The notes below the pieces were generated by a model. The model worked only from the letters and a program-made list of their open reading frames with translations. It was not told the origin of the DNA and made no database searches. The translations under genes and the position numbers were made by a program. From Acidimicrobiia bacterium (lineage in GTDB: Bacteria > Actinomycetota > Acidimicrobiia > Spongiisociales > ZC4RG35), in the NCBI GenBank assembly GCA_035250485.1, contig DATFFB010000041.1:3047-67046 (forward strand): a stretch of 64,000 bases of DNA. The letters run 5' to 3'. This document shows, piece after piece, positions 2,573-50,806 of this stretch; position 1 is the stretch's first letter; the number at the start of each line of letters is the position of its first letter.

Positions 2573-2986
2573 GTGGCTACTCGGCTCAATCCTTATATCT
2601 CTTTCACCGACAACGCCCGACAGGCAATGGAGTTCTATCAGTCGGTGTTCGGGGGAAAGCTCACTCTCAACACCTTCGGAGAGTACGGAGCACCTGACGG
2701 ACCCGGAGCCAACAACATCATGCACGGCCAGCTCGACACCGATAGCGGGCTGACGTTGATGGCCGCCGACACCCCGCCCGGAGAGACGCACCAGGTGGGG
2801 AACAACTTCGCCGTCAGCCTGAGCGGGGAGGACGCCGACGAGCTCCGTGGGTATTGGAAGAAACTATCGGCCGGGGGGGAAGTATCGGTGCCCCTCGAGA
2901 AGCAGATGTGGGGAGACGAATTCGGTATGTGTGTCGATCAGTTCGGGATTCCCTGGATGGTGAACATCGGTCCGCCCCGGAGCTGA
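2573..2986 (+). CDS. VOC/glyoxalase-fold protein (PhnB/YjdN-like)
   Basis: 137 aa. N-terminus LNPYISFTDNARQAMEFYQSVFGG is typical of the family. GAAGGAGG RBS lies upstream of the GTG start. Confidence 0.75.
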   Translation: MATRLNPYISFTDNARQAMEFYQSVFGGKLTLNTFGEYGAPDGPGANNIMHGQLDTDSGLTLMAADTPPGETHQVGNNFAVSLSGEDADELRGYWKKLSAGGEVSVPLEKQMWGDEFGMCVDQFGIPWMVNIGPPRS

Positions 2987-3008
2987 TCGCCTCGCTTAGC
3001 GCGGATTC

Positions 3009-3049
3009 TTCCGGGCTTATAGCCGGGAAGAATCCGCGCAGATCCACCT
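3009..3049. repeat. stable hairpin (14 bp + 3 bp stem); member of the intergenic repeat family with core CTGCGCGGATT; possible terminator
   Basis: gcgcggattcttcc (3009-3022) pairs with ggaagaatccgcgc (3036-3049). No U-tract follows. The core recurs at 13422, 31841 and 31900-31948. Confidence 0.6.
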
Positions 3050-3067
3050 CGTACACTCGCCGGGCCT

Positions 3068-4744
3068 ATGACCTCGTCGGTGGCCCCGCTGCAGCTTCGT
3101 GGTTTTCGTTCGCTGTGGGGGGCATCCCTCTTCTCCAATATCGGAGGCTTTCTCCAAGCCTCGGCGGCTGCCTGGCTGATGCTCGACCTCACCGGCTCGG
3201 CCACCTGGGTGGGACTGATCTCGGCTTCAACCACGCTGCCTTTTCTCGCCCTGGCGCTGTTGGCGGGTGCCGTGGCCGACATGACCGATCGGGTGCGGAT
3301 ACTGCTGGTATCTCAGATTGCGATGGCCACCGCGGCCGCCGCCATGGCCATCCTGGCCTTCTTGGGCGAAGCCACTCCGGTCCGTCTCCTTGTCCTGGGC
3401 CTGCTCATCGGTGTCGCCGGCTCTTTCAACCTTCCCGCCTGGCAGGCTCTGGTCCCCGACCTCGTCCCGCGGGAGATGATTGCGTCCGCAGTGGCGCTCA
3501 ACTCGGTCTCCTTCAATGTCGCCCGGGCCGTCGGCCCAGCCCTCGGCGGGCTGCTGATCGCCACCATCGGGGCGGAAGCGGGATTCGGACTCAATGCCCT
3601 TTCCTACATCTCAGTCGTTGTCGCTCTTTGGTTCATCGGACGCTCTGACACCCAGAAGCCGGCCGATGCCGCCCCACTGACGACGGCGATGGCCCTGGGG
3701 TGGCGGTTTGCGCGCTACACCCACAGCTTTCGACGAGTGCTCTTGTTTGGAGCCCTTTTTGGGTTGTCGTCCTCGGTCGTTCCGACCGTTCTTCCCAGTC
3801 ACACCGATGCGCTCGGGGGCGGCTCGCTCGCCTATGGGGTGCTGCTCGGCACGATGGGTTTCGGAGCCATCGTCTCGGCGTTTGCGAGACGACGGTTGGC
3901 GGAACGCCTGCGAAAATGGACCGTTCCCGCCGCCATCGGTGGGTATTCGTTGGGCGGCATTGCGGTCGGGCTGGCCCCGTCGTTGCTCTGGGCCATTCCC
4001 GGTCTGCTCCTTTCTGGCGCCTCGCTCGTGCTCGCCACCACAACTCTCAACTCGACTGCCCAGATGCTCAGTCCTCGTTGGGTTCGAGGGAGGACCATGA
4101 GTCTCTGGTCGCTGGCCTTCGCCGGAATGACCCCATTCGGTGCGATCCTGGCGGGGGCCGTCGCTGACGCTCTCACCACTCGCTCTTCGTACGTATTGAT
4201 CTCGTCCGCTGGTCTGGTGTTAGCAGTGGCAGCCATTCGCTCGGGCATCCCGGTGCTGAGCGAGATCGTCCCGCCCGAATTCGACCCCGACCGCAGCCCT
4301 CCCGAACACGTCGAAACCCTCGACAGCGGCCCAGTGATGGTCCTCAACGCCTTCGATCTTCAACCCGGCCAGGTCGACGATTTCCTGGAGGTGATGCAGG
4401 ACCTGCGCCTGGTTCGCCTACGAACCGGGGCTTACCGCTGGCGTCTTTATCGGGACGCCTCCGATCCGCGTCGCCTGATCGAAATGTTCCTCGTCGTCTC
4501 CTGGCGCGAGCACCTCAACCAGCATCGTCGGATCGACGACGTCTCGGCCGAACTAATCCGCCGGGCGCGCTCGTTCGATCGAACCGGTGAACCAAGGTCG
4601 CGCCACCTGATCGCAGTCGACGTAGAGAAGCCTCCGGATTTCGACCTGCTTCTCACCACCCACACGCAAATGCACGAAACGGACGGTTCGATACTCCTCG
4701 AAGAGACGGCCGAATTCGACGCCATCCGCGGCGACCACATATGA
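3068..4744 (+). CDS. MFS transporter with a C-terminal soluble (ABM/Dabb-like) extension
   Basis: 558 aa. About 12 TM segments are followed by a soluble tail of roughly 130 aa (VMVLNAFDLQPGQVDDFLEVM...VSWREHLNQH). Confidence 0.75.
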   Translation: MTSSVAPLQLRGFRSLWGASLFSNIGGFLQASAAAWLMLDLTGSATWVGLISASTTLPFLALALLAGAVADMTDRVRILLVSQIAMATAAAAMAILAFLGEATPVRLLVLGLLIGVAGSFNLPAWQALVPDLVPREMIASAVALNSVSFNVARAVGPALGGLLIATIGAEAGFGLNALSYISVVVALWFIGRSDTQKPADAAPLTTAMALGWRFARYTHSFRRVLLFGALFGLSSSVVPTVLPSHTDALGGGSLAYGVLLGTMGFGAIVSAFARRRLAERLRKWTVPAAIGGYSLGGIAVGLAPSLLWAIPGLLLSGASLVLATTTLNSTAQMLSPRWVRGRTMSLWSLAFAGMTPFGAILAGAVADALTTRSSYVLISSAGLVLAVAAIRSGIPVLSEIVPPEFDPDRSPPEHVETLDSGPVMVLNAFDLQPGQVDDFLEVMQDLRLVRLRTGAYRWRLYRDASDPRRLIEMFLVVSWREHLNQHRRIDDVSAELIRRARSFDRTGEPRSRHLIAVDVEKPPDFDLLLTTHTQMHETDGSILLEETAEFDAIRGDHI

Positions 4745-6000
4745 CCGCTCGAACCGGGGGCCGCTATCTCCGATTGCTCGCCGACAACGCCGACTTTCGG
4801 AGGCTCTATCTCGCCCGACTCGTCTCCTACGGGGGCGATTGGTTCCTGCTGGTGCCGATGCTGTCTCTGGTCCACGATCTGAGTCGCTCGCCTTTCCTCA
4901 CCGCGGCCGTGCTGACCGCCAACACCCTCCCCGCCTTTTTGCTCTCTCCGATCGGCGGGGTCTTGGCCGATCGCGTCAACCGGAAGAAGATCATCGTCTG
5001 GTCGAGCCTGGTCGCCGCTGGGGCGAGCTCCACAATTCTTTTCGTCGACTCGTCGTTCATCCGCGACAACGGGCTCGGAGTCACGCTGGTCCTGGGAGCG
5101 ATGTCGATTCTCGCCGCCCTCAGTGCCCTGATCACTCCGGCCTCCTCGGCGTCACTCCCGGTGATCGTCAAGCCAGCGGAGCTGGGAGATGCATCGTTTC
5201 TCCTCGAATCGACCTGGGGCACTATGGCCGCGGTCGGTGCCGCCCTCGGCGGGGTCGTCGCCACCTTGTTCGGGCGGCGGGCGGCCGTGGCGGTCGACGT
5301 CACCAGCTTCCTCGTCGCCGCCACACTGATCTGGCGGGTGCGGACCAATCTCTCTCCTCATAAGGAGCGAGCCAGTGGCGAGCCTCCAGCGCGTCTCCGC
5401 TCGGCGTTTACATACATCGCCCAGAAACCGACCGTGGCGGCGCTGCTTACCTCGAAGGCGGGCTTCGCCATCTTCGGGGGCGGGGCCGTGGCGCTCCTCC
5501 CGGTTCTCGCCCTCGATTCATTCGGCGCAGGTGACGATGGTGTCGGCTGGCTCCTCGCCGCCCGCGGCATCGGTGTCGTCATTGGGCCGTTCATCATTCG
5601 CCGGATGGTGGGTGGCACCGATCGCGCCGTGCTCACCTCCATCGGGGCGTGCATGGCTTTTTGGGGCCTTTCCTACCTGGGTACCGCGACAGCCCCCTCG
5701 CTGCTCCTCGCCGCCGCAGCGGTGTTCTTGGGCCATGCCGGGGCGGGAAGCCAATGGAGTTTCTCTTCCTACGGCCTTCAGCTCTACACCGACAACAGCA
5801 TCAAAGGTCGCATCTTCGGCCTTGACTTTGCCGCCGTCACCCTCACCTCGACCATGTCGCAATTGCTGTTCGGCTGGCTGGCGACGTCCTATTCGGTTCG
5901 CTCCATCTTCTTCGGTTTGGCGTTAGCCGCAATTGTTTTTGGGCTCGTTTGGCGTCGAGTCACCACGCGGTACTGGAACGAGCCCGCTCACGCCATCTGA
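4741..6000 (+). CDS. MFS transporter
   Basis: 419 aa polytopic membrane protein. ATGA overlap with the upstream MFS gene. Confidence 0.75.
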   Translation: MTARTGGRYLRLLADNADFRRLYLARLVSYGGDWFLLVPMLSLVHDLSRSPFLTAAVLTANTLPAFLLSPIGGVLADRVNRKKIIVWSSLVAAGASSTILFVDSSFIRDNGLGVTLVLGAMSILAALSALITPASSASLPVIVKPAELGDASFLLESTWGTMAAVGAALGGVVATLFGRRAAVAVDVTSFLVAATLIWRVRTNLSPHKERASGEPPARLRSAFTYIAQKPTVAALLTSKAGFAIFGGGAVALLPVLALDSFGAGDDGVGWLLAARGIGVVIGPFIIRRMVGGTDRAVLTSIGACMAFWGLSYLGTATAPSLLLAAAAVFLGHAGAGSQWSFSSYGLQLYTDNSIKGRIFGLDFAAVTLTSTMSQLLFGWLATSYSVRSIFFGLALAAIVFGLVWRRVTTRYWNEPAHAI

Positions 6001-6039
6001 AATGCCTGCAACCGGGTGGCGAGCTTCGGGGTTCCTTGA

Positions 6040-6555
6040 TTGATGGACGATCTGCCAATTCGGCTTGCGGAGGACCTTGATGGCGCCTTTCCCGAATTGG
6101 TCGAAGGCCTGCAATCGGAGCTCTACTCGGGTTTGCGCTCGTTGGCAGGTGGGGATGCCGAGGACCTCGCCCAGGAAACATTCATTCGGGCGTATCGCGC
6201 CCTCTCGAGCTACGACACGGCACGGGTCCGCAACCTCTCGCTGCGGGGCTGGATCTGGACCATCGCCCTCAATCTGGGGCGCAACCATCTCCGGGATCGT
6301 GCCCGCCGACCCACCGTGGCCAATGAGCTGTTCGATGTGGGGAGAGACGATCCTGAGCCAATCGACTGGATGGCTTGGGAGGCTCGTTTGCAGAAACTGA
6401 GCCTTCCGATCCGCAAGGCGGTGGTCCTCCGCCATGTGGTTGGACTCGATTACCCAGAGATCTCGTCGGTGACGGGCCGGCCGGTGGGAACGGTGAAAGC
6501 GGACGTCCATCGCGGACTGCAGAGACTGAGAACGATCATGGAGGACGAAGAATGA
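6040..6555 (+). CDS. ECF-type RNA polymerase sigma factor
   Basis: 171 aa. Region 2 (DLAQETFIRAYRAL, WIWTIALNLGRNHLR) and region 4 (LRHVVGLDYPEISSVTGRPVGTVKADVHRG). The ATG at 6043 is an alternative start. Confidence 0.85.
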   Translation: MMDDLPIRLAEDLDGAFPELVEGLQSELYSGLRSLAGGDAEDLAQETFIRAYRALSSYDTARVRNLSLRGWIWTIALNLGRNHLRDRARRPTVANELFDVGRDDPEPIDWMAWEARLQKLSLPIRKAVVLRHVVGLDYPEISSVTGRPVGTVKADVHRGLQRLRTIMEDEE

Positions 6556-7133
6556 ACATCGAAGAAACGCTCGCCGGACTGCGTCGAGGGGCGCCGGCGT
6601 CGCTGAAGGCGAATGTCGAGCTCGGCACCGGTTTGGCCGACGGTGTCTCCATCTTCGAGAGCCCAGTGGGCGAACTGGCGGTGACGTTCAATCCGCACGG
6701 CGTTTCGTCGGTAAGTCTGGCTGCGCTCGACTTCGAGGACTACTTCGCCGATCGGTTCGGGCGTCGACTCATCGAGGCCCGACCGCCGTCGGGGTGGGAG
6801 AAATTGATCAATCGGGGAATCGAGGCCGGAAACCCAGGACAGCTTCCCCTCGACCTGAGAGGGGTTACTGCCTTTCGACGAGAGATCATGCTCATCGCCA
6901 CCACCATTCCCCGCGGTGAAGTTCGGCCCTATCAATGGCTGGCCCGACAGGCTGGACGCCCGGGCGCGGCCCGGGCGGTGGGAAGTGCCATGGCCAACAA
7001 TCCGATTCCCTTGATAGTGCCCTGCCACCGAGTCGTGCGCTCCGATGGCTCTCTGGGGGCCTATTCGCTCGGAGGAGCCGATAACAAACGCGTGCTCCTC
7101 GCCCGTGAGGGCTTTGTCTCCACCGAAGGATGA
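6552..7133 (+). CDS. methylated-DNA-protein-cysteine methyltransferase (MGMT/Ogt) family protein
   Basis: PCHRVV acceptor-Cys motif with N- and C-terminal MGMT domains. The ATG at 6552 overlaps the sigma factor stop (ATGA). The longer track ORF starting at 6375 overlaps the sigma gene. Confidence 0.8.
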   Translation: MNIEETLAGLRRGAPASLKANVELGTGLADGVSIFESPVGELAVTFNPHGVSSVSLAALDFEDYFADRFGRRLIEARPPSGWEKLINRGIEAGNPGQLPLDLRGVTAFRREIMLIATTIPRGEVRPYQWLARQAGRPGAARAVGSAMANNPIPLIVPCHRVVRSDGSLGAYSLGGADNKRVLLAREGFVSTEG

Positions 7134-7200
7134 GCCAGGCGCCCTAGCCAAATAGCCTTCAATGCTTGGCGCCGCGGGGCGATAAATATCAGAATTGATC

Positions 7201-8805
7201 ATGGCCGATATGCCAGAAACCACTCCCGCCGACGAATCATCTCCGGATGCGCCCAGCGAGCAGGCACCGCTCGACTTGGTTCCCTCCTTTGCGGTCGAAG
7301 ATGAAAAGACGGAGGCCTGGAGCCCGCTGACAAGGGCCAACTCAGACTACGAACGACTCTGGTCGATGCCCAATGGGTCCACCCACCAGAAGGCTCCCGT
7401 GGCCGCAGACGCCCCGCCGCCCGCCTCCGAGTCGGCACCGCCAGAGCCCGAAGCCCTGCAGCCGGTGGCGCTGTCAGCCGAGCCGGAACCGGCCCAGACC
7501 GCCGAGCCCGAAGCCCAGACAGCCGAGCCGGAACCGGTGCCGAAGATGTCTGCGGCTTCCTCGAGTCTTCCTACCCCGGGGTTCACTGGGACTCTGGTGA
7601 CGGGTTCTGAGGTCCTCAATGCCTCGATCGTGGTCGGTAGCGCCGGCATTGTTCTCTGGGGCGGAGGTGCCGAGATCGGAACCTGGGAGCATTCGCAGGC
7701 CAGGATCGCTCGACTGACCTTTTCTCGCTTCGCCATCCAGGCCGAAGGCGAGACCCTCACCTTCACGGCCGACGACCCGACCGGACTGGATAACGCAATT
7801 GCCGCCACCGCGCCGGTGGCGCCACCCGAAGGGCCAGAGCCGATCCCGTCTGAGGATCCGCCGCAAGAGAACCAAACCGAGGCGCCACCACCGGAACCTG
7901 TCACCTCCGAGGTCTCGGTGGCGGCGGCAGCAGTCAGAAGGCCCCGCATCAAGAACTTCCGGCCGGAAGGATCGGAAGCCCCAGCACCATTGCCGGCGCC
8001 GGTTACTCCTCTTCCGCCCGAAGAACCCATCCCCCAAATGGCTGAGGAAGCAAGCGAAGGGGTCACGATTGCAGACTCGGTACGGGCCCACAGCGTGGGG
8101 AAAACGGTCCGCCCCCGCCGATTCCGTCCCAACGACCTCCGGGGCATGCTCATCAAAACCGCCGTTGTCATCGGCCTCGTCGCTGTCCTGGCCGGAGCAG
8201 CGTATGCGGTGATGCTGCTCATGGGACGCACCGGGGATCCGGGAGCCACTGCCACCACCCAACCCGAGGCCACCGCACCTCCGATCACGATTGTCATCAC
8301 CACCGCTCCCCCGGCCACGGTCGCCACCACTGCCGCCCCCGAGTTGGGGGATACCACCTTCTTTCAGACCGACGCGGCCACGCTCACCGAGCGCTGGAAC
8401 ACACTGGCCGAAGTCTCGGCTCCCAACATGGTGCTCTTCTCCGATCTCACTTCCCCCTTCATCCTGCTCCTGACCCCGAACGTGACGCTGGAAGGCGTGC
8501 TCGATCCCGTGGCCGGAAATGTCACGATGCGCGCGACCCCAACGGGGACCCCGGAGGGCGACGGGGCGATCCTCAACGCCCTCGGGATCCTGATTGGGAC
8601 CGCCGATCCCTCGCTAGACGGCAGCGATCGCAAAGCCTTGCTGGCTCAACTCGGTTTGGACGTGGATCGACCCGAGTTGGGCGGAATCGACGGATCACTC
8701 ACTCACAACGGGCTGGCTTATCGGATGGTTTATCAGGCCGAGCAAAACACGCTTGAGTTCGCCATCACCCCTGAGGGGGCGGTCACAACCACCGCGGCCG
8801 GCTAG
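7201..8805 (+). CDS. proline/alanine-rich single-pass membrane protein, function unknown
   Basis: Long ORF. Low-complexity PE/PA region, one TM segment (LIKTAVVIGLVAVLAGAAYAVMLLM) and a more ordered C-terminal domain. TTG at 7195 is an alternative start. Confidence 0.55.
   Translation: MADMPETTPADESSPDAPSEQAPLDLVPSFAVEDEKTEAWSPLTRANSDYERLWSMPNGSTHQKAPVAADAPPPASESAPPEPEALQPVALSAEPEPAQTAEPEAQTAEPEPVPKMSAASSSLPTPGFTGTLVTGSEVLNASIVVGSAGIVLWGGGAEIGTWEHSQARIARLTFSRFAIQAEGETLTFTADDPTGLDNAIAATAPVAPPEGPEPIPSEDPPQENQTEAPPPEPVTSEVSVAAAAVRRPRIKNFRPEGSEAPAPLPAPVTPLPPEEPIPQMAEEASEGVTIADSVRAHSVGKTVRPRRFRPNDLRGMLIKTAVVIGLVAVLAGAAYAVMLLMGRTGDPGATATTQPEATAPPITIVITTAPPATVATTAAPELGDTTFFQTDAATLTERWNTLAEVSAPNMVLFSDLTSPFILLLTPNVTLEGVLDPVAGNVTMRATPTGTPEGDGAILNALGILIGTADPSLDGSDRKALLAQLGLDVDRPELGGIDGSLTHNGLAYRMVYQAEQNTLEFAITPEGAVTTTAAG
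7475..7537 (+). repeat. 18-bp exact direct repeat (cagccgagccggaaccgg) at 7475 and 7520, inside the Pro-rich gene
   Basis: Read directly from the sequence. It encodes the AEPEP repeats. Confidence 0.8.
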
Positions 8806-13421: not shown

Positions 13422-13440
13422 CTGCACGGATTTTTTCGTG
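13422..13440. repeat. degenerate copy of the CTGCGCGGATTTT repeat core (ctgcacggattttttcgtg)
   Basis: Lies in the 43-bp gap between convergent genes. Compare 31841-31859 (ctgcgcggatttttcgtt). Confidence 0.45.
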
Positions 13441-13455
13441 TCAGGCACGCATAGA

Positions 13456-14058
13456 TCATGTGCCGTCGGCCAGGCCGACGGTGGTATCGCCCAGCACCTC
13501 CTGATGGCCGATCCCGAGGGTCTTGATCCACCGTTGCTGTCCGCTGGTCAGGGCGATGAAGAAGCCCAGTTCGACCAGCTCGGGCTCGGTGAAATGGCGA
13601 TGGAGATCGGCCCAGAGCTTGTCGTCAGCAATGTCGGCATCCCAAAGGATGGCGCTGGTGTAGCGGAGGGCGGTTTTCTCCCGCTCGTCAAATCGATCGG
13701 AGTCCTCGAATTGAAGGAGCTCGTCGTAATGAGCTTCGGTTAGTCCTTGCCGTCCAGCCTGGACGGACCGTTGAACTCCTCAATACTCACACTTGATCGA
13801 CTTGGAGACGTAGACCCGACAAAGCTCCTTGATCTGATGATCCAAGACGCCGTCCAAGAACGTGGTGCGCCACGCATTGGTGAAGGCATGGAGGACGGCG
13901 GGCACGTGAGAGCGGATGGCCTGGCTCTCGGGCCGGGGGGTGGAATGTGTGCGACCGTATTCGACTATTTCTCGATCGCCAGGATCGAGCGAGGCAAGGT
14001 CGGGATAGGAGATTCGGGGCATCAGCTCCTCCTGTGCTGGCGGTGCAAGTGCATCCAA
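13456..14058 (-). CDS. AhpD/carboxymuconolactone decarboxylase family protein with in-frame UGA (candidate selenocysteine, CEYU motif)
   Basis: The track ORF 13780..14058 ends ...SKSIKCEY at TGA (13780-13782). The same frame continues for 107 codons of CMD-like sequence (LTEAHYDELLQFEDSDRFDEREKTALRYTSAIL...ELGFFIALTSGQQRWIKTLGI) to the TGA at 13456. The UGA falls at the second Cys of the family's CxxC motif. Confidence 0.7.
13749..13768 (-). promoter_or_regulatory. candidate SECIS hairpin downstream of the UGA in the AhpD-like gene
   Basis: The mRNA reads G-U(bulge)-CCGUCC-AGGCU-GGACGG-C. The stem starts about 13 nt after the UGA. The bulged U and G-containing apical loop resemble the E. coli fdhF SECIS as I recall it. 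Confidence 0.45.
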
Positions 14059-19884: not shown

Positions 19885-19901
<17 letters not shown>

Positions 19902-20478
19902 TCTCCCCGAGATCACCATCGTCGAGGCAGAGCCGGTAGAGGAAGAGGCCATCGAGGCGGTCACCGCCGAGTCTTTGGGCCTCGACCTCTCCAGCGATCC
20001 GAACGAGGCCATTGACCAACTGGTTGCGGCCCTGGCCGGGTCGCGCAAGGAGGCCGACTCCTATCTCGACGACCTGCGGCGGGTGGCAGCCGATTTCGAC
20101 AATTATCGCAAGCGTGCCCAGCGCGAGATGGGCGGTCTCGTCGATCGCGCCTCCGAGCGAGTGGTCTCGGCGCTGCTGCCAGTGATCGACAGCCTTGATG
20201 CCGCCCTCGCCGTTGAAACCAATTCCGAAACAGAAGAGAAGCTCAAGTCCGGGGTCCGCAGCACTCGCGACCAGCTTCTCGATGTGTTGGCCAAGGAAGG
20301 ACTCGAGCCGATCGAGACCTTCGACATGCCATTCGATCCTTCATTGCACGAGGCCGTCACCGCCAGCGGCGAAGGCAACGGCGAACTCGTCATCACCGAC
20401 GAGTTTCGCCGCGGGTATCGCCTCAAGGGCCGGGTGTTGCGCGCCAGCATGGTGGGGGTAACGCCCCGCAAGGAATGA
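19885..20478 (+). CDS. grpE: nucleotide exchange factor GrpE
   Basis: GrpE core ([12 protein letters not shown]...FDPSLHEAV). The ATG at 19885 gives the shortest overlap with dnaK; the track ORF starts at 19822. Confidence 0.9.
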
Positions 20479-20482
20479 TTCT

Positions 20483-21622
20483 TTGAACCGCGATTGGGTT
20501 GACAAGGACTTCTATCAGATCTTGGGAATCTCCAACTCGGCCACGGCCGAGGAGATCAAGCGCGCCTATCGCAAGCTGGCGCAGAAGTTCCATCCCGACG
20601 CCAACCCGGGAGACAGCGCCGCCGAGGAGAAGTTCAAGCAGATCTCCGAGGCCTACGGGGTGCTATCCGACACCGAGCAGCGCAAGGAGTACGACGAATT
20701 GCGCCGCCTGGTGGAATCGGGTGCCTTCAGGAATTATGGCGGTCAAGGCGGCCGCGGCTTCGGTGGCGGTAGCCAGCGGGTACGGGTTGAAGACCTGAGT
20801 GACATCCTGGGCGGATTCGGAGACATATTCGGATTCGGTGGAGCCCGGGGGAGAGCGGGCCCGCAGAAGGGGCGGGACACCACCGCCGATCTCAACATCT
20901 CTTTTGATGATGCGGTCGACGGGCTCATCACCAATGTCGAACTCCGAGGCGAGGCTCCCTGCAGTCGCTGCGGCGGCTCCGGAGCCGAACCGGGTTCGGC
21001 CATCGACGTCTGCCCGACTTGCGGTGGCGATGGAGTCGTTGCGCAGAATCAAGGCGTCTTTTCATTCAGCCAGCCTTGCCCTCAGTGTGGCGGCAGCGGC
21101 CGACTGATCACCAGTCCCTGCAGTCAGTGCCGGGGACGAGGGACTGAGGTTCGCACTCGCACAATCAAGGTCAGGATTCCGCCGGGGATCAAGGATGGTG
21201 CCACCGTCCGCCTGGCGGGCAAGGGAGCGCCCGGCGCCAACGGCGGACCTCCGGGAGATCTGCTGGTGAAGGTTCATGTCTCGAGCCATCCGCTGTTCAA
21301 GCGCAAAGGCGACGATCTCCATATCACGGTTCCGATCAGCTACACCGAGGCGACACTCGGCACCACCCTCGAGGTGCCAACTCTCAACGGCAAGGTTTCG
21401 ATCAAAGTGCCAGCCGGCACGCCCTCGGGGAAGACATTCCGGGTGAAAGGGCGAGGAGTCAGCGCTGGCCGCCGTCAAACCGGTGACCTCTATGCCAAGG
21501 TCGAAGTAGTCGTGCCCGCCAAGATCTCTCGTGAGGAAAAGCGCCTTCTCGAGGAGCTAGCGGCGATAGACGACGATGACCTCCGTGGTCATCTCCGTAC
21601 GCGCCAAGAAACGGCCTCATGA
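20483..21622 (+). CDS. dnaJ: molecular chaperone DnaJ
   Basis: J domain (HPD), G/F region and four CxxCxGxG zinc motifs. Confidence 0.95.
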
Positions 21623-23698: not shown

Positions 23699-24724
23699 TC
23701 AGTTCTTCGGGGCCAAGTAGGGGAAGGTTCCGCTGAACGCGGAGTCGTTGCTCACACAGTCGGTGGTCACGGCCCCGTTCGTCACGATGCCGAGCTCGGT
23801 GTCGATGACGTCGTCGGCCAACCTCCGACCGTTGAGGAATCCCGCGCTCGACCCGAAATCCACGGTCAGCACATCGGGCAGAAGAATGTCGGTGAGGGCC
23901 CCGACAGTCGGGTTTCCAGCTCCGTAAAAGATCTCGAGCGTGTCGACAACTTCGCTGCGGAAATCACGCTGATCGTGCTGCGGCTTCCCGGCGTTGAACG
24001 CATTCCTCTGCGACGGCTCTGAGCCAGCTGGCTCGAAGATGTTGTTGGGGATGAATACGGTGTTGATCGCTGGTCTCCCCATGCGGTCGATCTGCTGATC
24101 GCCGAGGATGGTCCGAGCCCACACCCCGACCGTTCCCGATAGCTCCGACCGCGGAAACTCGAAGACGATCGCCTGCGTGTTGAGCCCGGCAAAGAAGTTG
24201 CTTGCAGATGAGCAGTCGAAATCGGCTGCCAGGAAGCTGACCAGATCGAAAAAGAACGGATCGTCAAAGGTCCCGGCCGTGACCTTCACTTGACCATCGA
24301 GGTCAAACGTTTGACCCGTCACACCCCTGATGTTTGGCCCCGTGCCTTTGACTTTGAGCCGATATGCCTGCTGACCGCTGGGGTCGGCAGGATCGAAATT
24401 GATCCGGGCCCAGTTGTCGGGTTTGGCATCGCCGTCGTTGTCGGCCAAGAACTCATAGGTGGCATCGGGGTGAAACCCGAGCTGTCCGGTTAGTGCTCCG
24501 GCCGCGGGATTGGTGGTCATGATCAGGACTGCGTGGCCGGGATCGGCCGGCGACTGAAAGGCGTAGACATCGTTGATGTCCAACCGGGAGTCTCCGCCCG
24601 GAGGCGTCAACCCGGGGGCGTCGAGGTGATCGGCCGCCAACAAGCTCGCCGGGCCGGCTGCCAGCCCCACCGCCAATGCCGCGATGACCGCCAGGATCGG
24701 CAACCTTCTGAAAAGCTCGCGCAT
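23699..24724 (-). CDS. secreted DUF4331 domain protein
   Basis: 341 aa. Signal peptide, then ADHLDAPG...DINDVYAF...FDDPFFFD...GRRLADDVID, the conserved blocks I associate with DUF4331. Confidence 0.75.
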   Translation of the reverse strand: MRELFRRLPILAVIAALAVGLAAGPASLLAADHLDAPGLTPPGGDSRLDINDVYAFQSPADPGHAVLIMTTNPAAGALTGQLGFHPDATYEFLADNDGDAKPDNWARINFDPADPSGQQAYRLKVKGTGPNIRGVTGQTFDLDGQVKVTAGTFDDPFFFDLVSFLAADFDCSSASNFFAGLNTQAIVFEFPRSELSGTVGVWARTILGDQQIDRMGRPAINTVFIPNNIFEPAGSEPSQRNAFNAGKPQHDQRDFRSEVVDTLEIFYGAGNPTVGALTDILLPDVLTVDFGSSAGFLNGRRLADDVIDTELGIVTNGAVTTDCVSNDSAFSGTFPYLAPKN

Positions 24725-24741
24725 GTTCTCCTTCTCCTTCT

Positions 24742-24756
24742 GTCGAACGCTTCGAC
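24742..24756. promoter_or_regulatory. 15-bp palindrome GTCGAAcgcTTCGAC in the divergent DUF4331/NicO promoter region
   Basis: Read directly; 6-bp arms. Function unknown. Confidence 0.3.
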
Positions 24757-24840
24757 AACGGTTTCGGAGTCCGGCTCACCGCGGATTGCTCACTTTTCAA
24801 ATCACCAATCCTTTGCCATCCCGAGAACGAACCCTTATCG

Positions 24841-26298
24841 ATGGACCGGCTGTCAGGGGATCGAGGACTTGGTAGGGGCCGTGCGCGCCGCCAGTCGCCT
24901 CGTCGTGCCGGGGCCAAGCTTCTCATCCTGACCGCGGTCGCGCTGGTGCTGATGACGGGTACCGCCTTTGCCCATCCGTTGGGCAACTTCACCACCAACG
25001 TCCACCTCGGTCTCTTTTTCAGTCCGGGCTGGCTGGAGCTCTCCCTCGTGGTCGACATGGCAGAGATTCCAGCGTTCCGGGAAAAGCGAAATATCGACCA
25101 GGACAGTGACGGCATTGTCGGCGCTCGCGAACGAGATAAGTACGCCGCCGCCGCATGCACCGGCTTTCGGCCCCAGATCGTTCTCCGGCTGGAAACCGCA
25201 CCGCTCGTTCTTGAGAGCCGTAGCGCCATTTTGAATTTTCCGCCCGGGCAAGGCGGCCTCGACACGCTGCGCATCGAGTGCCGCTTCGCCGCCGCTCTCT
25301 CCGACCACCGCGGCGAGTTGCAGGTGGAGAATCAGGTCTATGCCGATCGCTTGGGGTGGTCGGAGATCGTCGCCTCGAGTCGAGGGTTGGCAATCGAAAC
25401 GACTCTGCCAACGGCCAGTCCCTCCGAGATCCTGACCATCTATCCGGCTGGACCCGCCCGGGCGGAACGAGCGGGATCGATCCTTGTCGGAGCCGGTGAG
25501 GGAGGGACACTTTCGACTCCCACCGCCACCACCCCGGCCTTGGTTGAGCGAATCGGCCGCGGGGTGGCAGGGGGCTCCAGCGCTCTGGCGTTGCTGGCCG
25601 CCCTGGCCCTCGGGGCCGGACATGCCCTCGCACCGGGCCACGGCAAGACCCTGATCGCGGCCTATCTGGTGGGTCGCCGCGGGGGGCCGCGCACCGCGGT
25701 CGGGTTGGGGTTGAGCGTGGCGCTTTCGCACACACTCGGGGTCGGCCTTTTGGGGCTGGTGACCGCTCTCACCACTTCGGCGTTCCAGCCTGAGTCGGTT
25801 TATCCCTGGCTGTCTTTGATCTCGGCCTTGATCGTGACCTCGATCGGATCCGTGATGCTGGTCCGGGCGGCCCGGCGGGATCGGGAACATCACCATCCCC
25901 ACGGTCATGACCACCCTCACGAGCACGATCATGACCACGACCACGAGGGAGATCACCTTGCGCACGGCTCCGCCGGTTGGCGCTCGCTAGCTGCCCTCGG
26001 CTTGGCGGGAGGGCTGGTGCCCTCGGCCTCGGCGGTGGTGCTTCTGCTGGGAGCGGTCGCTCAGGGAGAGGCCTGGTGGGGGCTGGCACTGGTGGCCGGA
26101 TTCGGCTTGGGGATGTCGGTCAGCCTGATCGGAGCCGGCCTGCTCGCCGTGGGTGCTCAGAGGTGGGGTTGGACCAGAATGAGTTCCGGCCGCTGGCGAC
26201 AGACGTGGCAGCTGCGAGTCCCCCAGTTCGGCGGATTGGCCGTCACGCTGATCGGTGTCTGGCTGGTCTTCGATGCCGCTCGGCGATTCGTCGCCTAA
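24841..26298 (+). CDS. NicO/RcnA-type nickel/cobalt permease with a large N-terminal extracytoplasmic domain
   Basis: Signal/anchor, then AHPLGNFTTN and a domain of about 190 aa. This is followed by the NicO signature GAGHALAPGHGKTLIAAYLVG, a His-rich loop (REHHHPHGHDHPHEHDHDHDHEGDH) and further TM segments. Confidence 0.75.
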   Translation: MDRLSGDRGLGRGRARRQSPRRAGAKLLILTAVALVLMTGTAFAHPLGNFTTNVHLGLFFSPGWLELSLVVDMAEIPAFREKRNIDQDSDGIVGARERDKYAAAACTGFRPQIVLRLETAPLVLESRSAILNFPPGQGGLDTLRIECRFAAALSDHRGELQVENQVYADRLGWSEIVASSRGLAIETTLPTASPSEILTIYPAGPARAERAGSILVGAGEGGTLSTPTATTPALVERIGRGVAGGSSALALLAALALGAGHALAPGHGKTLIAAYLVGRRGGPRTAVGLGLSVALSHTLGVGLLGLVTALTTSAFQPESVYPWLSLISALIVTSIGSVMLVRAARRDREHHHPHGHDHPHEHDHDHDHEGDHLAHGSAGWRSLAALGLAGGLVPSASAVVLLLGAVAQGEAWWGLALVAGFGLGMSVSLIGAGLLAVGAQRWGWTRMSSGRWRQTWQLRVPQFGGLAVTLIGVWLVFDAARRFVA

Positions 26299-27464: not shown

Positions 27465-27484
27465 GTTCTTCGAGGCTAAAGGAG

Positions 27485-28000
27485 TTGGGGACCGATAACG
27501 TCGTCAACATGACGGCCTTGGACGGTGCCATGCTCCTTCTTCGCGTCGTGGTCGGCCTGTCTTTCTTCGCCCATGGCGTCCGACATGCCCGCACACAGGA
27601 AGGCACCGCCCGCTGGTTCGAGCGGGTTGGATTCAAGATGGCTCCGTTGCAAGCGCGCCTGGCTGCCTTCGGGGAGCTGGCGGCCGGCGCGGGTTTGGTG
27701 GTGGGTCTCTTGACCCCGATCGCGGCGGCCGCGGTGGTGGCGACGATGGTGACGGCGGCCGGCTCGGTCCACCGCTTCAACGGCTTCTTCACCTTCAACA
27801 AAGGCGAGGGATGGGAATACGTAAACGTGCTCGGCACGGCGGCGTTGGTGGTGGCGTGGTTGGGGCCGGGGGAGTTCTCCCTCGATCACCTGGTCGGGAT
27901 CGATTGGGCGGGGATAGTCGGCTTCCTGATCGGCATCGGGGGGATCGTCGCCGGCTTGGTTCAGCTCGCCCTCTTCTGGCGCAAACCCGCCACTAGCTAG
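27485..28000 (+). CDS. DoxX family membrane protein
   Basis: 171 aa with four TM segments and a DoxX-like N-terminus (LLLRVVVGLSFFAHG). Confidence 0.7.
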   Translation: MGTDNVVNMTALDGAMLLLRVVVGLSFFAHGVRHARTQEGTARWFERVGFKMAPLQARLAAFGELAAGAGLVVGLLTPIAAAAVVATMVTAAGSVHRFNGFFTFNKGEGWEYVNVLGTAALVVAWLGPGEFSLDHLVGIDWAGIVGFLIGIGGIVAGLVQLALFWRKPATS

Positions 28001-28443
28001 TCGACCCTGAGCCCGGGGGCACCCGGTCCATTGACTGCCTGGCGATCTCCGTAGTTGACCAGCTGGCAGGTGCCCAGTGAAAGACAACCGCAACCGATGC
28101 ATCCGGTCAAGGTGTCCCGCAATACCTCCAGGCGCTGTATCTGGAGGTCGAGACGCCGCCGCCAGCTCTTCGACAATCGCTCCCAGTCGGCGCGGCCCGC
28201 GGTCCGATGCTGGGGCAAGGTCGCCAGAGCCGCTGCGATCTCGTCGAGGGTGAGGCCCACAGACTGGGCGGCGCGGATCGTGGCGATGCGACGCAGGGTG
28301 GAACGGTGATAGCGGCGCTGGTTGCCGTCGGTCCGTTCCGAGTCGATCAGGCCCTTGCTTTCATAGAAGCGAAGGGCCGAAGTCGAAGTCCCGCTGCGGT
28401 TGGCCAGCTCGCCAATGCTGATCGTTTCCGGCAGGGCGCTCAT
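27997..28443 (-). CDS. soxR: redox-sensitive transcriptional activator SoxR (MerR family, 2Fe-2S)
   Basis: MerR HTH plus the diagnostic cluster motif CIGCGCLSLGTC. Confidence 0.9.
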   Translation of the reverse strand: MSALPETISIGELANRSGTSTSALRFYESKGLIDSERTDGNQRRYHRSTLRRIATIRAAQSVGLTLDEIAAALATLPQHRTAGRADWERLSKSWRRRLDLQIQRLEVLRDTLTGCIGCGCLSLGTCQLVNYGDRQAVNGPGAPGLRVD

Positions 28444-30239: not shown

Positions 30240-31049
30240 ATGGCAAGCATCGTTCGGCCCGTGCGGATCGCAGCCCAGCTTCACCCTCAGCACGGCGACT
30301 ATGCCGAGCTAAGAACAACCGTCGGCCGGGTTGAGGAGATGGGTTTCGACCTCCTCTACAGCTGGGACCATTTCTTCCCGCTCTACGGCGAGCGCGATGG
30401 AGCCCACTTCGAATGCTGGTCGATGCTGGCGGCGTGGGCGGAGCAGACCTCGCGGGTGGAGATCGGTGCCCTGGTCACATGCAATTCCTACCGCAATCCC
30501 GATCTGCTCGCTGACATGGCTCGAACGGTCGATCACATCTCCAACGGCCGCCTCGTTTTCGGCATCGGCTCGGGTTGGTTTCGACGGGACTACACCGAGT
30601 ACGGATATGACTTCGGGACCAAGGGCAGTCGGCTCGATAGCCTCGCCATGAGCCTGCCCCGCATCAAGGCGCGATGGAAGAAGCTGAACCCCCCACCGAT
30701 CCGATCCTTACCGGTGCTGGTGGCTGGAGGCGGATTGAAGAAGACGCTCCGGATCGTGGCCGAGCACGCCGACTCCTGGCACGGCGGCTTTCCCGAGGAT
30801 CCCGCAGAAATGGAGCCCAAGATCGCTGCCCTCCGGCGCTGGTGCGAAGAGCTGGGACGCGATCCGAGTGAGATCGAATGGGGCCTGGGAGTCGAACCAA
30901 CCGATCTCGACCGCTTCCTGGCCAAGGATGCCCGGACCTATCTCGAAATGGGTTTCACTCAATTCACCCTCGGGTTCAATGGCCCCGGCTGGGATCTCTC
31001 CCCGGGCCGCGACTGGCTGGCCTGGCGCGACGGCCAGACCCGCGGCTAG
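30240..31049 (+). CDS. LLM-class F420-dependent oxidoreductase
   Basis: 269 aa from the ATG at 30240. Luciferase-like TIM barrel (CNSYRNPDLLADMARTVDHISNGRLVFGIGSGW). Confidence 0.75.
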   Translation: MASIVRPVRIAAQLHPQHGDYAELRTTVGRVEEMGFDLLYSWDHFFPLYGERDGAHFECWSMLAAWAEQTSRVEIGALVTCNSYRNPDLLADMARTVDHISNGRLVFGIGSGWFRRDYTEYGYDFGTKGSRLDSLAMSLPRIKARWKKLNPPPIRSLPVLVAGGGLKKTLRIVAEHADSWHGGFPEDPAEMEPKIAALRRWCEELGRDPSEIEWGLGVEPTDLDRFLAKDARTYLEMGFTQFTLGFNGPGWDLSPGRDWLAWRDGQTRG

Positions 31050-31783
31050 CTCGCCCTCGAGCCCACCTCGTGGGCTCCGGCGCTCCTAGCCAAAGCGCCG
31101 GCGATCAATCCGATGACGAAGCCTCCGATGTGGGCCATATAGGCCACGCCGCCGGTCGTTTCCTCGGAGACGGCAAAGGCACCGATGCCATTGATGAACT
31201 GGAAGACCGCCCACATCCCGATGACCGCGATGGCCGGGAGCAGGGCCTGCCGAAGTCCAATCATGACCCGCACCCGGTTACGAGGGAAAAGCACCAGATA
31301 GGCGCCTAAGACCCCGGAGACGGCGCCGGAGGCGCCCAAGGTCGGGATCGGGGAGTCAGGGTTTATCAAGATCTGGGCGAGAGCGGCAACCAATCCTGCC
31401 AATAGATAGAAGAGGACGTAGAGGCCGCGGCTGATGGCATGTTCGACATTGTCTCCGAACACCCAAAGGAACACCATGTTGCCGATGAGGTGAAGCCACC
31501 CGGCGTGCATGAACATGCTGGTGAGCAGGGTCAGGTAGATGGGGTTGGGGCCGGGCTCCTGCGGCACCTGGACTTCTCCCGCGGAGGTCTCGATGACTTG
31601 CGCCGTGGTGAGGTCTTCGCCGGTGGTGATCTCCAGCGGTACCGCCGCGTAGCCGTAGGTGAAGGTCTCGTTCGCACCGGCGCCCTGGAGGAAGAGGAAA
31701 ACCAGAACGTTTAACGCGATGAAGACGATCGTGACAACGCCGAGCCCCTTGCCCGGAATCTGGTCATCACCGGTCGGAAACAA
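31046..31783 (-). CDS. rhomboid family intramembrane serine protease
   Basis: GASGAVSG (Ser) and HIGGF (His) motifs with 6-7 TM segments. TTG start 6 nt after an AAAGGAGG RBS. The 657-aa track ORF is an artefactual 5' extension through the ATPase gene. Confidence 0.8.
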   Translation of the reverse strand: MFPTGDDQIPGKGLGVVTIVFIALNVLVFLFLQGAGANETFTYGYAAVPLEITTGEDLTTAQVIETSAGEVQVPQEPGPNPIYLTLLTSMFMHAGWLHLIGNMVFLWVFGDNVEHAISRGLYVLFYLLAGLVAALAQILINPDSPIPTLGASGAVSGVLGAYLVLFPRNRVRVMIGLRQALLPAIAVIGMWAVFQFINGIGAFAVSEETTGGVAYMAHIGGFVIGLIAGALARSAGAHEVGSRAS

Positions 31784-31840
31784 AACGCGCCTCCTTTGAT
31801 CACGGGGGTCGTACCCGAAGCCCTCGCCCGCTACACGGTA

Positions 31841-31883
31841 CTGCGCGGATTTTTCGTTCCCCAGGCCGCGTAAATCTGCACAG
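31841..31883. repeat. hairpin repeat copy (ctgcgcggattt / aaatctgcacag arms, 19-nt loop)
   Basis: Read directly. Its arms and loop (ttcgttccccaggcc) resemble the neighbouring copy at 31900-31948. Confidence 0.55.
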
Positions 31884-31899
31884 GTCGACAAGGCGGGCG

Positions 31900-31948
31900 G
31901 TTCTGCGCGGTTTTGTCGTTGCCAGAGCCAAAAAAAACCGCGCAGAAC
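31900..31948. repeat. hairpin repeat copy with perfect 15-bp arms (gttctgcgcggtttt / aaaaccgcgcagaac), abutting the ATPase stop codon
   Basis: Read directly. Loop is gtcgttgccagagccaaaa. Confidence 0.7.
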
Positions 31949-33951
31949 TACGGACGGAGGTCGAGGCTTCGTAGCAACTGGGCGTTGATAGCGACGATGA
32001 CAGTGGAAGCGCTCATCAGCAGTGCCGCCGCGGCCGGAGCCAGCACGATCCCGGCCCAAGCCAGGGCCCCCGCTGCCAGCGGTATCGCCACCACGTTGTA
32101 GCCGGTGGCCCAGACCAGGTTCTGGACCATCTTCCGATATCCGGCCTCCGAGAGACGACGGACACCGGCTACCGCCCGCGGGTCGTCGGTGGCGAGAATG
32201 ATTCCGGCCGACTCGATGGCGACGTCGGTTCCCGCCCCGATGGCGATACCGACGTCGGCTTGGGCCAGGGCCGGAGCATCGTTGACCCCATCGCCCACCA
32301 TCGCCACGATCGAACCCTTCTTCTGCAGCTCGGCCACCCGTCGATGCTTGTCCTCGGGCAAGACCTCGGAAAGCACCTGGTCGATACCCAGATCGGTGCC
32401 GACCGCGTCCGCCACCTGTCGGGCGTCCCCAGTGATCAACGCCACCTCGACGCCTAGTTGGTGGAGCGTTCTCACCGCCTCTACCGACTCCGGACGTATC
32501 TCGTCCTCGAGTGACAACGCCCCCCGCACCTGGTCGTCGACGATCACATAGAGGATTCCCGCCCCGCGCTCGGCCCAGGCACTCGTCATCGCCTCTACCG
32601 CCCTTGGCTGGTCGAGCTGGCGTTCGGCAAGCAGCGCCGGGCCCCCCACCGCCACCACGGATTTTTCGACCTGAGCTTCGACACCGCGGCCGCTCATCGC
32701 CCGGAAGCGGGTTGCCACCGGCACCTCGCCCCGGTTCCTGGCGGCGGCAACAACGGCCCGCGCCAGTGGATGCTCGGAGTCGGCCTCGACGGCGCCTGCC
32801 CATGCCAGCAGCCGATCGGTATCGCCATCGGTGGCAAAGACCTCGCGCACCACATGCTGACCCTTGGTCAAGGTGCCGGTCTTGTCGAAGAGGACCACGT
32901 CGACCTTGCGCATTCGCTCCAGCGCCAGCCGGTCCTTCACGAGGATTCCGTTCCGGGCGGCCAGGCTGGTGGAGATGGCAATCACCAATGGGATCGCCAG
33001 TCCCAGGGCGTGAGGACAAGCGATGACCAGCACGGCGACGGTTCTTACCACTGCCTCATCGGTCTCCCCCGCCGCCAGCCATCCGATCACGGTGAAGACG
33101 GCTGCGCCGATGGCGACATAGAAGAGAAGGGCGGCAGCCCGGTCGGCCAAAACCTGGGCCCGCGAGCGCGACCCTTGCGCCTCGGCCACCAGCCGCTGGA
33201 TGCCCGCCAGAACAGTACCTTCACCAACGGCGTCGATACGCAGTCGTACTGCAGAATCCGTCGCCACGGTTCCGGCGACGACCCGGTCTCCCACTAACTT
33301 CGACACCGGTCGCGATTCACCGGTGACCATGGACTCGTCGACTTCGACTTCGCCGGCGACGATCTCCCCGTCGGCCGGAATCCGCCCTCCGGGCCGGACC
33401 AGGACGAGATCGCCAAGGCCCAGCTCTGAGACTGGAACCGTCTCGGTACCGGCGTCGGTGATCCGCTCGGCCTCGTCAGGGAGTAGCTCGGCCAGCGCAC
33501 CGAGAGCGCCGCGAGCCTGGCCGATGGCGCGCATCTCCATCCAGTGGCCGAGCAGCATGATCGTGATGAGGGCGGCCAATTCCCACCAGAACTCGAGAGC
33601 GAAGAGTCCGAGAGTCGTCGCCGCCGAGGCGACAAAGGCGACGATGATCGCCATCGCGATCAAGAGCATCATCCCCGGCTGGCGAGCTTTGATCTCCCGG
33701 ACCGCTCCGCTGAGAAAGGGCATGCCGCCATAGAAGAAGATGACGGTTCCCAGGATGGGGGCGACCAGGTTGGACCCGGGAAACCGGGGGGCAGCGTAGC
33801 CCAGCCACTCCTGGGGCATCTGGCTCCACAGGATGACCGGGACGGTCAGCCCCAGGCAGACCCAGAACCGGTCCCGAAACATGGCCACGGTGTGACCGGC
33901 GTGCTGGTCAGGTCCCGGGCGAGGGGATTCGTGGTGGTGGCTGTGGTCCAA
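31948..33951 (-). CDS. heavy-metal translocating P1B-type ATPase, CopB-like (CPH motif, His-rich N-terminus)
   Basis: 667 aa. [23 protein letters not shown], and N-terminus MDHSHHHES...HAGH. Confidence 0.9.
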
Positions 33952-44900: not shown

Positions 44901-45306
44901 TGCTCCTCGACGCTGACGCCAGTCGAGCGAGGGCCAACGCCCCCAACAAAAGGCCGAAGTCACGCAGGGCAACGTCGTAAAAGTCCCCGAGAACAAGGAG
45001 GTTCACGATGATCACCGCCAGCCAGGCAGCGACGACGTAGCCTCCGATCCCCGGGCGAATCAGAACCAGAACCGCGGCGACGAGTTCAACTCCGCCCACG
45101 ATTCTCATGATCGTCGTGGCGTCCATCCCCAGCGTGTCGGTGACGACGGGAGCGAGGTACGCCTCCCAATCCGCCAGGAGGCCGAGGAACTTGTCGGCCC
45201 CGGCGATCAGCGGCAGAAGAACATATCCAATATGGAGGATGCGGAACGCTTGCCCTACCGGTGGATCAAGGGTCCCCTGCCGGTTTGAGGCACTGACTGC
45301 TGTCAT
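44893..45306 (-). CDS. small DoxX-like membrane protein
   Basis: 137 aa from the ATG at 45306, with four hydrophobic segments. The upstream part of the track ORF is not protein-like. Confidence 0.5.
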   Translation of the reverse strand: MTAVSASNRQGTLDPPVGQAFRILHIGYVLLPLIAGADKFLGLLADWEAYLAPVVTDTLGMDATTIMRIVGGVELVAAVLVLIRPGIGGYVVAAWLAVIIVNLLVLGDFYDVALRDFGLLLGALALARLASASRSTT

Positions 45307-45331
45307 CTCACTTCTCCTTTCGGGAGCGGCT

Positions 45332-50706: not shown

Positions 50707-50780
50707 CTGCGGTCCTTCATTCGAACCTGTACGCATCAGCCCGACTTGACGGGTCGAAATACCCGGGGCTGAGTCGGTTG

Positions 50781-50806
50781 AAACCAAAAGCGCCCCGTGG
50801 GGGAGC
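50781..50806 (-). terminator. intrinsic terminator after clpB
   Basis: mRNA GCUCCCCCACGGGGCGC followed by UUUUGGUUU. A second 8-bp hairpin (50810-50834) lies directly after the stop codon. Confidence 0.6.

Follow-up and report, generated by a model that had tools for sequence, protein, structure and literature searches.

A 64,000-nucleotide stretch of Acidimicrobiia bacterium DNA (contig DATFFB010000041.1; hereafter the window, with coordinates counted from its first nucleotide) carries on its minus strand a gene that very probably encodes a selenoprotein of the AhpD/carboxymuconolactone decarboxylase (CMD) superfamily. An in-frame UGA at codon 81 would specify selenocysteine (Sec), and a hairpin directly downstream would act as its selenocysteine insertion sequence (SECIS). 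The frame beyond the UGA is intact and under selection, the UGA falls in an alignment column shared by Cys and Sec, the hairpin covaries and goes with the UGA, and a Cys ortholog standing in for the protein has a predicted AhpD-like fold.

One gene across the UGA codon

As read from the sequence, the minus-strand open reading frame (ORF) 13780–14058 ends ...ELCRVYVSKSIKCEY at TGA 13782–13780, and 107 further open codons follow in the same frame, to TGA 13458–13456. Both the truncated ORF and the 107-codon continuation had been described in the original prediction and are present in the sequence. Of the 200-residue product proposed there, the reading frame stands and the start at 14058 probably does not: the gene likely begins at ATG 14022–14020 rather than at the TTG at 14058, giving 188 residues, because the ATG is preceded by AGGAGG at 14033–14028 and because public gene calls share this start. 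These calls, made on three independent assemblies of the locus, begin at ATG 14022, have the same TGA at codon 81, and yield an 80-residue fragment together with an antisense product of 79–101 residues, neither with a Pfam match. The gene is shortened in this way because its active-site codon is a UGA that would be read as Sec. The plus-strand ORF 13438–13743, already suspected of being an antisense artefact, is by the same reading of the sequence a mirror of the coding strand and not a gene; an equivalent antisense ORF over the gene's 3′ half recurs in 58 loci.

Matches to protein families support a single product spanning both sides of the UGA. The full-length protein matches Pfam CMD (PF02627) with 30.1 bits (cutoff 23) over profile positions 1–82 of 84, compared with 15.3 bits for the truncated ORF. 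A database search with the read-through protein returned 3232 homologs, the best of them full-length proteins of about 190 residues that are 60–83% identical and cover 97–100% of the read-through protein. In an alignment of 28 homologs, 27 have Cys in the UGA column. The lone Trp belongs to an 83% identical ortholog (P0001) in which the codon is itself TGA at the DNA level, with 108 open codons after it, so that the check proposed for a Cys/Sec column came out in favour of one. Residues E66, C78, Q84, R85 and S86 are invariant in this alignment, and the invariant signature around the UGA column is K-E-x-C-R...C-x-Y-[C/U]-x-x-Q-R-S.

Alignment to Pseudomonas aeruginosa AhpD (E...CAYCVNMH) places E66 on the Glu, C78 and U81 on the two Cys of C-A-Y-C, and R85 on the His of CxxCxxxH. 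The UGA thus matches the second Cys of the CxxC motif, where it had been predicted (CEYU). The catalytic signature of Mycobacterium tuberculosis AhpD, E-X11-C-X2-C-X3-H, is found in part: E66-X11-C78-X2-U81 is present, and the position four residues after U81 is an invariant Arg (R85), not His.

A covarying hairpin specific to the UGA form

The predicted G+C-rich 6-bp hairpin with a bulged U and an AGGCU loop 13 nt past the UGA can be read directly in the sequence. Its core stem (CCGUCC-AGGCU-GGACGG) begins 13 nt after the UGA, or 11 nt if the outer G13768–C13749 pair is counted, with U13767 bulged. To assess conservation of the stem, we aligned 111 distinct Sec-form sequences from the UGA and compared columns 17–22 with columns 28–33. 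The degenerate pattern by which the loci had been collected left the hairpin out, and the result is therefore independent of how they were selected. In this helix 95.5% of cells are paired, compared with 33–51% when the 3′ partner is slid by 1–3 columns; 102 cells are changed on both sides, and none of 500 shuffles reaches the observed covariation score. Pair 18–32, for example, is C–G in 49 sequences, U–A in 45 and G–C in 9, and pair 19–31 is G–C in 57, C–G in 45 and G–U in 8. The residues encoded over the hairpin vary (S-V-Q-A-G-R, S-L-R-G-G-E, S-V-R-S-G-S and others) while the stem is kept.

Genes with Cys in place of Sec provide a control. We repeated the scan with TGY in place of TGA and kept sequences with 55% identity or more to the window protein over at least 150 residues, a restriction imposed because the TGY scan returned mostly a 'CGNQRS' sub-clade. 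All six in-register pairs are present in 94 of 106 Sec forms and in none of 49 Cys forms, in which 1–2 pairs is the mode; whatever the register, a stem of 6 bp or longer is present in 105 of the 106 Sec forms and in 9 of the 49 Cys forms. In a verified pair of genes whose proteins are 85% identical, the TGA form (L248) has 6 of 6 pairs and the TGT form (L249) has 3 of 6. A covariance model of the UGA and hairpin, whose training set included the window sequence, has its sole window match at 13738–13782 (60.7 bits; next best 8.8 bits).

The geometry fits that of bacterial SECIS elements as reportedly described by Zhang and Gladyshev (bSECISearch) and by Liu et al. in 1998 (the Escherichia coli minimal SECIS). 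Bacterial elements have the loop 16–37 nt from the UGA and a G among the first two loop bases; here the stem-loop is 17 nt long, with its loop opening 19 nt past the UGA and a G likewise among the first two loop bases. The E. coli fdhF/fdnG-type elements are likewise 17-nt stem-loops within the coding region, just past the UGA, with 11–13 nt spacing, a G in the first two loop bases and, optionally, a U bulged out beneath the core stem. Their canonical loop is GGUC, whereas the loop in this family is AGGCU, GGGGC or GGUCU by lineage, and SelB binding is putative. On this comparative evidence the hairpin acts like a bacterial SECIS and goes with the UGA form; the SECIS check called for in the original prediction came out in its favour.

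Spread of the Sec form and alternation with Cys

We scanned one genome per GTDB species with the pattern, which is anchored on invariant residues and requires TGA. The TGA form is present in at least 120 species genomes, all of them metagenome-assembled genomes (MAGs). Among the matches listed, they belong to Gaiellaceae, Solirubrobacterales, Thermoleophilaceae, Acidimicrobiia, Ktedonobacterales and other Chloroflexota, Binatia, Rokubacteria, and delta- and beta-proteobacteria. In three Acidimicrobiia MAGs (L114, L026 and L078) the TGA form encodes a protein 97–99% identical to that of the window, which places the source organism in Acidimicrobiia. Alternation between TGA and TGY, suggested earlier as a check, is seen among orthologs up to 85–89% identical, the closest Sec/Cys pairs in the set; for 121 of 123 Sec forms the nearest neighbour is another Sec form. 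Two metagenome contigs (L142 and L196) each have a Cys-form match and a TGA-form match, so both paralogs may occur on one contig.

Sec decoding and alternative explanations of the UGA

A second gene in the window provides indirect but independent evidence, from its sequence, that the organism decodes UGA as Sec. The ORFs 50116–50787 and 47656–50103 share a frame and are split by TGA 50118–50116 (...GLEQQARL-U-HGPTVVSLAATFGRGAMTNHW...). Merged, they match the formate dehydrogenase-N (FDH-N) alpha model TIGR01553 with 1271.5 bits (cutoff 814.2) over profile positions 2–1009 of 1009, and the merged protein carries a twin-arginine translocation (Tat) signal (RRTFIQGG). The position of the UGA is also that of Sec in E. 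coli FdnG, and of the markers of the Sec trait, Sec-type FdhA is the most common. FDH beta and FdhE-like genes come after the alpha gene, and the three make up an FDH-N operon.

Outside the window, a Nakamurella MAG (L065) has a more distant CxYU paralog (...RLRVSQTLECDY-U-GNQRAV...) about 85 nt from a tRNA-Sec gene. There, within the same 8 kb, the paralog is at 2974–3597 (minus strand), tRNA-SeC at 3682–3774, a selA-like gene at 5682–6785 (minus strand) and a selD-like gene at 7042–7965 (minus strand). The E. coli SelA and SelD probe sequences behind the last two assignments may contain errors; they matched L065 only. Paralogs of the L065 type are also present in L014, L035 and L043.

Several points weigh against the selenoprotein assignment. 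The 64-kb window has no selA, selB, selD or selC/tRNA-Sec gene, and a tRNA scan found no tRNA in it, so the Sec machinery of this genome is one that we infer. The shifted register of the hairpin is a second point: 11 of the 111 Sec forms use a register displaced by one base, with a 7-bp stem and a 3-nt loop. The Cys-form controls are on average somewhat farther from the window protein (55–65% identity) than are the Sec forms. Rfam had no match to the hairpin at gathering thresholds over the whole window, and for the 61 nt around the hairpin in the window sequence, RNAfold gives as its lowest-energy structure a longer helix with interruptions (z = −2.4); because this single-sequence fold differs from the simple hairpin, the latter rests on comparative evidence. 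The active site departs from AhpD in its Arg for His, and no AhpC/TSA-type peroxiredoxin gene is among the annotated neighbours in the window, which together make 'alkylhydroperoxidase' chemistry only putative. Finally, actual selenium incorporation at UGA81 is deduced from sequence comparison, and the SelB interaction and the redox chemistry of the protein are likewise putative. A permissive Rfam scan of 13650–13850 gave one snoRNA match only (E = 7.8), which we regard as spurious.

Could the UGA be read through without selenium? Trp or Cys might be inserted at position 81 by a suppressor or by a near-cognate tRNA for either amino acid, with the hairpin a generic stimulator, and such a reading would accord with the lack of visible Sec machinery in the window and with the Trp that databases give at position 81, although these Trp entries are gene-caller artefacts. 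We consider it very unlikely. The position is the redox Cys of CxxC and alternates with Cys forms; Trp there would be inactive, and if Cys were wanted, TGY is one mutation away and is used by related lineages. The distance, size and loop G of the hairpin match SelB-dependent elements, a Sec-type FDH-N alpha gene, a hallmark of Sec-decoding bacteria, lies in the same window, and the Nakamurella paralog sits beside tRNA-Sec, selA and selD.

Still less probable is a pseudogene or genuine truncation, in which translation really ends at the TGA, yielding an 80-residue fragment at most, with a 3′ part in decay. Gene callers do give an 80-residue product without a Pfam match, and a few surveyed loci look decayed past the TGA (L100 is frameshift-like, and the frame runs for 26 codons in L092 and 66 in L039). 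Against this, 105–118 open codons follow the TGA in more than 110 of the 120 genomes listed, and the window's own copy has an intact 3′ part. Between the window gene and its P0001 ortholog (73% nucleotide identity), the part after the UGA has 44 synonymous and 18 non-synonymous codon changes, and 56 of 79 base differences there are at third positions, with a like pattern before the UGA; this excess argues that the 3′ part is translated and under purifying selection, and so is no pseudogene. The outcome anticipated as fatal to the original prediction, decay of the 3′ part, was not what the codon-level comparison gave. Separate expression of the 3′ part is also difficult to envisage, as the sequence after the UGA has no in-frame start codon able to provide it, the Pfam domain and the predicted fold require both halves, and nothing would account for a covarying, UGA-specific hairpin in a pseudogene.

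An apparent stop created by sequencing or assembly error, or by a code in which TGA is Trp, is effectively refuted already: JGI calls do translate the codon as Trp in 11 of the 120 closest entries, but three independent assemblies of the locus agree on the TGA, which at least 120 other genomes also carry, homologs have Cys and never a genuinely encoded Trp in the UGA column, and TGA is the stop of 21 of the 46 long ORFs in the window, this gene included, which rules out a reassigned code.

The Trp entries themselves (P0001, P0009, P0016, P0025, P0030, P0033, P0036, P0038, P0062, P0063 and P0084), found at the Sec column among the 120 best database matches, are all JGI metagenome calls. For two, TGA was confirmed in the DNA (loci L001 and L248), and the Trp calls appear to be TGA codons on short contigs for which the caller switched to a code with TGA as Trp. 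Such a switch hides selenoproteins as seemingly complete 'W' proteins.

Features of the AhpD-like gene and of the other UGA-containing genes in the window
Feature	Position	Strand	Basis
Complete AhpD/CMD-family gene, 188 codons and stop, probable Sec at codon 81	13456–14022	−	Translation, full-length homologs, public start
Ribosome-binding site AGGAGG, 5 nt 5′ of ATG 14022–14020	14028–14033	−	Sequence
CMD domain (PF02627), residues 41–122, spanning the UGA and holding E66, C78, U81 and R85	13657–13902	−	Pfam
E66	13827–13825	−	Alignment
C78	13791–13789	−	Alignment
In-frame UGA, putative U81, second Cys of CxxC (C78-E-Y-U81)	13780–13782	−	Sequence, alignment
R85	13770–13768	−	Alignment
Putative SECIS hairpin, 6-bp core stem 13766–13761/13755–13750, loop AGGCU 13760–13756	13749–13768	−	Covariation
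True stop codon TGA	13456–13458	−	Homologs end within a few residues of it
Antisense shadow ORF, 101 residues, artefact	13438–13743	+	Covers conserved 3′ half of the gene
FDH-N alpha gene, in-frame UGA 50118–50116	47656–50706	−	Merged-protein profile match
FDH beta gene (TIGR01582, 365 bits), after FDH-N alpha	46729–47652	−	
FdhE-like gene, after FDH-N alpha	45332–46096	−	
MerB-like (alkylmercury-lyase family) gene, in-frame TGA 56884–56882	56663–57325	−	Ortholog comparison

Predicted fold and proposed mechanism

The fold was assigned by using a Cys ortholog (P0002, 69% identical) as a proxy for the window protein. Its AlphaFold2 model (mean predicted local distance difference test score, 91.7) has the predicted all-alpha AhpD-like fold, and Foldseek matched it, with probability 1.00, to 2prr ('AhpD core peroxidase-related protein'; template modelling (TM) score 0.74), Deinococcus radiodurans AhpD (6k40; TM score 0.76) and the reductive debrominase Bmp8 (TM score 0.72).

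In the mechanism that we propose, UGA codon 81 would not be read as a stop and the stem-loop 13 nt downstream would serve as a SECIS, recruiting SelB with Sec-tRNA(Sec) to the ribosome, allowing Sec to be incorporated and translation to continue through the last 107 codons. The resulting protein would be a 188-residue, all-helical thiol/selenol oxidoreductase with the redox pair C78-E-Y-U81. In the M. tuberculosis enzyme, the second Cys of the pair is the attacking nucleophile, and putting Sec in its place follows the pattern usual when Sec replaces Cys; on this ground we suggest that the protein would cycle between the selenol/thiol state and a U81–C78 selenenylsulfide. Catalysis would be helped by the invariant E66, which precedes C78 by 12 residues just as its counterpart does in AhpD, with the invariant R85 at the place of the AhpD His. 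The enzyme would reduce a peroxide-derived or a disulfide substrate.

Relation to known AhpD-like proteins

The gene belongs to a known kind of selenoprotein. AhpD-like CxxU selenoproteins were reported in 2005 from the Sargasso Sea ('AhpD-like protein', COG2128, 27 sequences; PMC1088965). A Global Ocean Sampling (GOS) survey then distinguished 'AhpD-like 1' (COG2128, 299 sequences, the fourth most abundant prokaryotic selenoprotein family) from 'AhpD-like 2' (pfam02627, 70 sequences, commoner in non-marine samples) (PMC2398784), and a 2026 review lists CxxU in AhpD-like (TIGR01926) and CMD-like (PF02627) proteins and in NF041238 and NF041047 (PMC13188914). Like this gene, these selenoproteins belong to superfamily PF02627, have Sec for the second Cys, have widespread Cys homologs and carry a downstream SECIS. 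Because the type has been known since 2005, the present finding is a re-annotation rather than a discovery, as had been anticipated.

JGI names the orthologs 'alkylhydroperoxidase family enzyme', which we take to be the COG2128 product name. Selenoprotein-aware NCBIfam models fall below their cutoffs: TIGR01926 (peroxid_rel) scores 22.6 against 81.8, NF053654 (YciW-related) 47.9 against 310, and NF041047 (GSU3128 family) 16.2 against 110. TIGR01926 nonetheless aligns end to end (residues 3–172 with profile positions 2–174 of 178), so that the protein is alike in architecture and outside the model, and NCBIfam has no curated equivalog for it. By their descriptions, the published AhpD-like selenoproteins are set apart from the present clade, whose members are about 190 residues long and have an invariant C-x-Y-U-G-x-Q-R-S. 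The clade occurs in soil-type MAGs (Acidimicrobiia, Gaiellaceae, Solirubrobacterales, Ktedonobacterales, Binatia and Rokubacteria), whereas the family was defined in marine samples. The Arg in place of the AhpD His, and the position of the clade outside curated NCBIfam cutoffs, are minor twists.

Solved AhpD structures (P. aeruginosa PA0269, 2ijc, 2o4d and 7xw1; D. radiodurans, 6k40; M. tuberculosis, 1gu9) share with the predicted protein the all-alpha fold (TM scores 0.59–0.76), a CxxC where a helix begins and, 12 residues ahead of its first Cys, the Glu. They differ in lacking Sec for the second Cys, in having His where R85 is invariant, in sequence (about 22% identity) and in the adjacent ahpC that is missing here; M. 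tuberculosis AhpD is a weak structural match (E = 3.2). Bmp8 (6ohi and 6ohj) gives a profile match (E = 2.3e-10) over residues 65–171, including its C-M-Y-C, but differs in its 17% identity, in having no Sec and in its setting in a marine natural-product gene cluster. It is a CMD-family enzyme whose CxxC thiols act on a small molecule, and CMD-fold CxxC enzymes are thus not necessarily peroxidases.

A more speculative reading, which we think doubtful, is that the C-x-Y-U-G-x-Q-R-S clade is a distinct selenoenzyme acting on a small molecule, as Bmp8 does, and not an AhpC-recycling alkylhydroperoxidase. It is suggested by the Arg in place of His, the missing ahpC partner, an Amidohydro_2 neighbour in 43 of about 120 genomes and the lack of a curated model. 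If true, annotation would systematically miss such a clade in soil Actinomycetota, Chloroflexota and Binatia.

A MerB-like gene with an in-frame UGA

A third gene in the window may also be recoded. The 120 best homologs of the read-through product of a MerB-like gene all end at its TGA, as proteins of 146–147 residues that cover 67% of the query. Three orthologs (60–70% identity) keep the TGA and continue for 71–72 conserved codons, and in the orthologs a hairpin with a GGUC loop follows about 16 nt after the TGA. Alignments of the merged protein to MerB models continue through the UGA, with scores below cutoffs (NF040728, 35 bits against 140), and the U aligns with what we take to be the catalytic Cys159 of MerB. 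These comparisons suggest that the gene may represent a Sec-MerB clade not yet described, whose members are widely annotated in error as a 147-residue 'organomercurial lyase' followed by an orphan ORF of 61–69 residues.

SaoL, a Sec-containing MerB relative of anaerobes, has a C-U dipeptide and lies in the SAO cluster (bioRxiv 10.1101/2022.07.06.499078; PMC13188914); we found no other Sec-containing MerB relative described. The MerB-like gene differs from SaoL in its T-U-G motif in place of C-U and in its gene context. With the FDH-N alpha and MerB-like genes also UGA-recoded by these comparisons, the earlier description of this genome as selenoprotein-rich is upheld for the window.

Genomic neighbourhood

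The GNAT gene upstream is 42 nt from the AhpD-like gene, and the two may share a transcript; a promoter and terminator scan found no terminator after the AhpD-like gene and no minus-strand promoter. Its neighbours in the window include GNAT, NUDIX, YCII, extracytoplasmic function (ECF) sigma factor, CHAD, DNA methylase, Lon and DnaK genes. Among the other Sec-form loci, the commonest real neighbour is an Amidohydro_2 (PF04909) gene encoding about 310–340 residues, present at 43 loci (for example, L090 and L002). It lies within about 1 kb of the Sec form in Gaiellaceae, Binatia, delta-proteobacterial and other MAGs and is absent beside the window copy; a functional link to the AhpD-like gene is possible. 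We considered assigning a function from recurrent neighbours (Amidohydro_2, FrsA-like, M24 peptidase and amine-oxidase genes), but none of these is present in the window, and the context therefore gives no function here.

Elsewhere in the window, 23699–26298 and 27476–28443 encode a DUF4331 protein, a NicO/DsbD_2 membrane protein, DoxX and a MerR regulator, a metal- and redox-flavoured set that is unrelated to the gene; a P-type ATPase gene lies in this neighbourhood at 31948–33951. Five stretches of 430–980 bp each have no confident ORF from a simple gene caller (6555–7195, 19901–20483, 30962–31948, 44900–45332 and 53423–53923), and the gap at 19901–20483 lies between dnaK and dnaJ, where grpE would be expected.

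Implications

For annotation, the consequence is that this gene is recorded as an 80-residue orphan with a false antisense ORF, or with Trp under genetic code 4, and that at least 120 species-level genomes would be affected; no NCBIfam model would rescue the mis-called gene. The understanding of Sec decoding and of the AhpD family is unchanged. The three putatively UGA-recoded genes within 64 kb would add to the evidence for several Sec redox enzymes in uncultured soil Acidimicrobiia and their neighbours.

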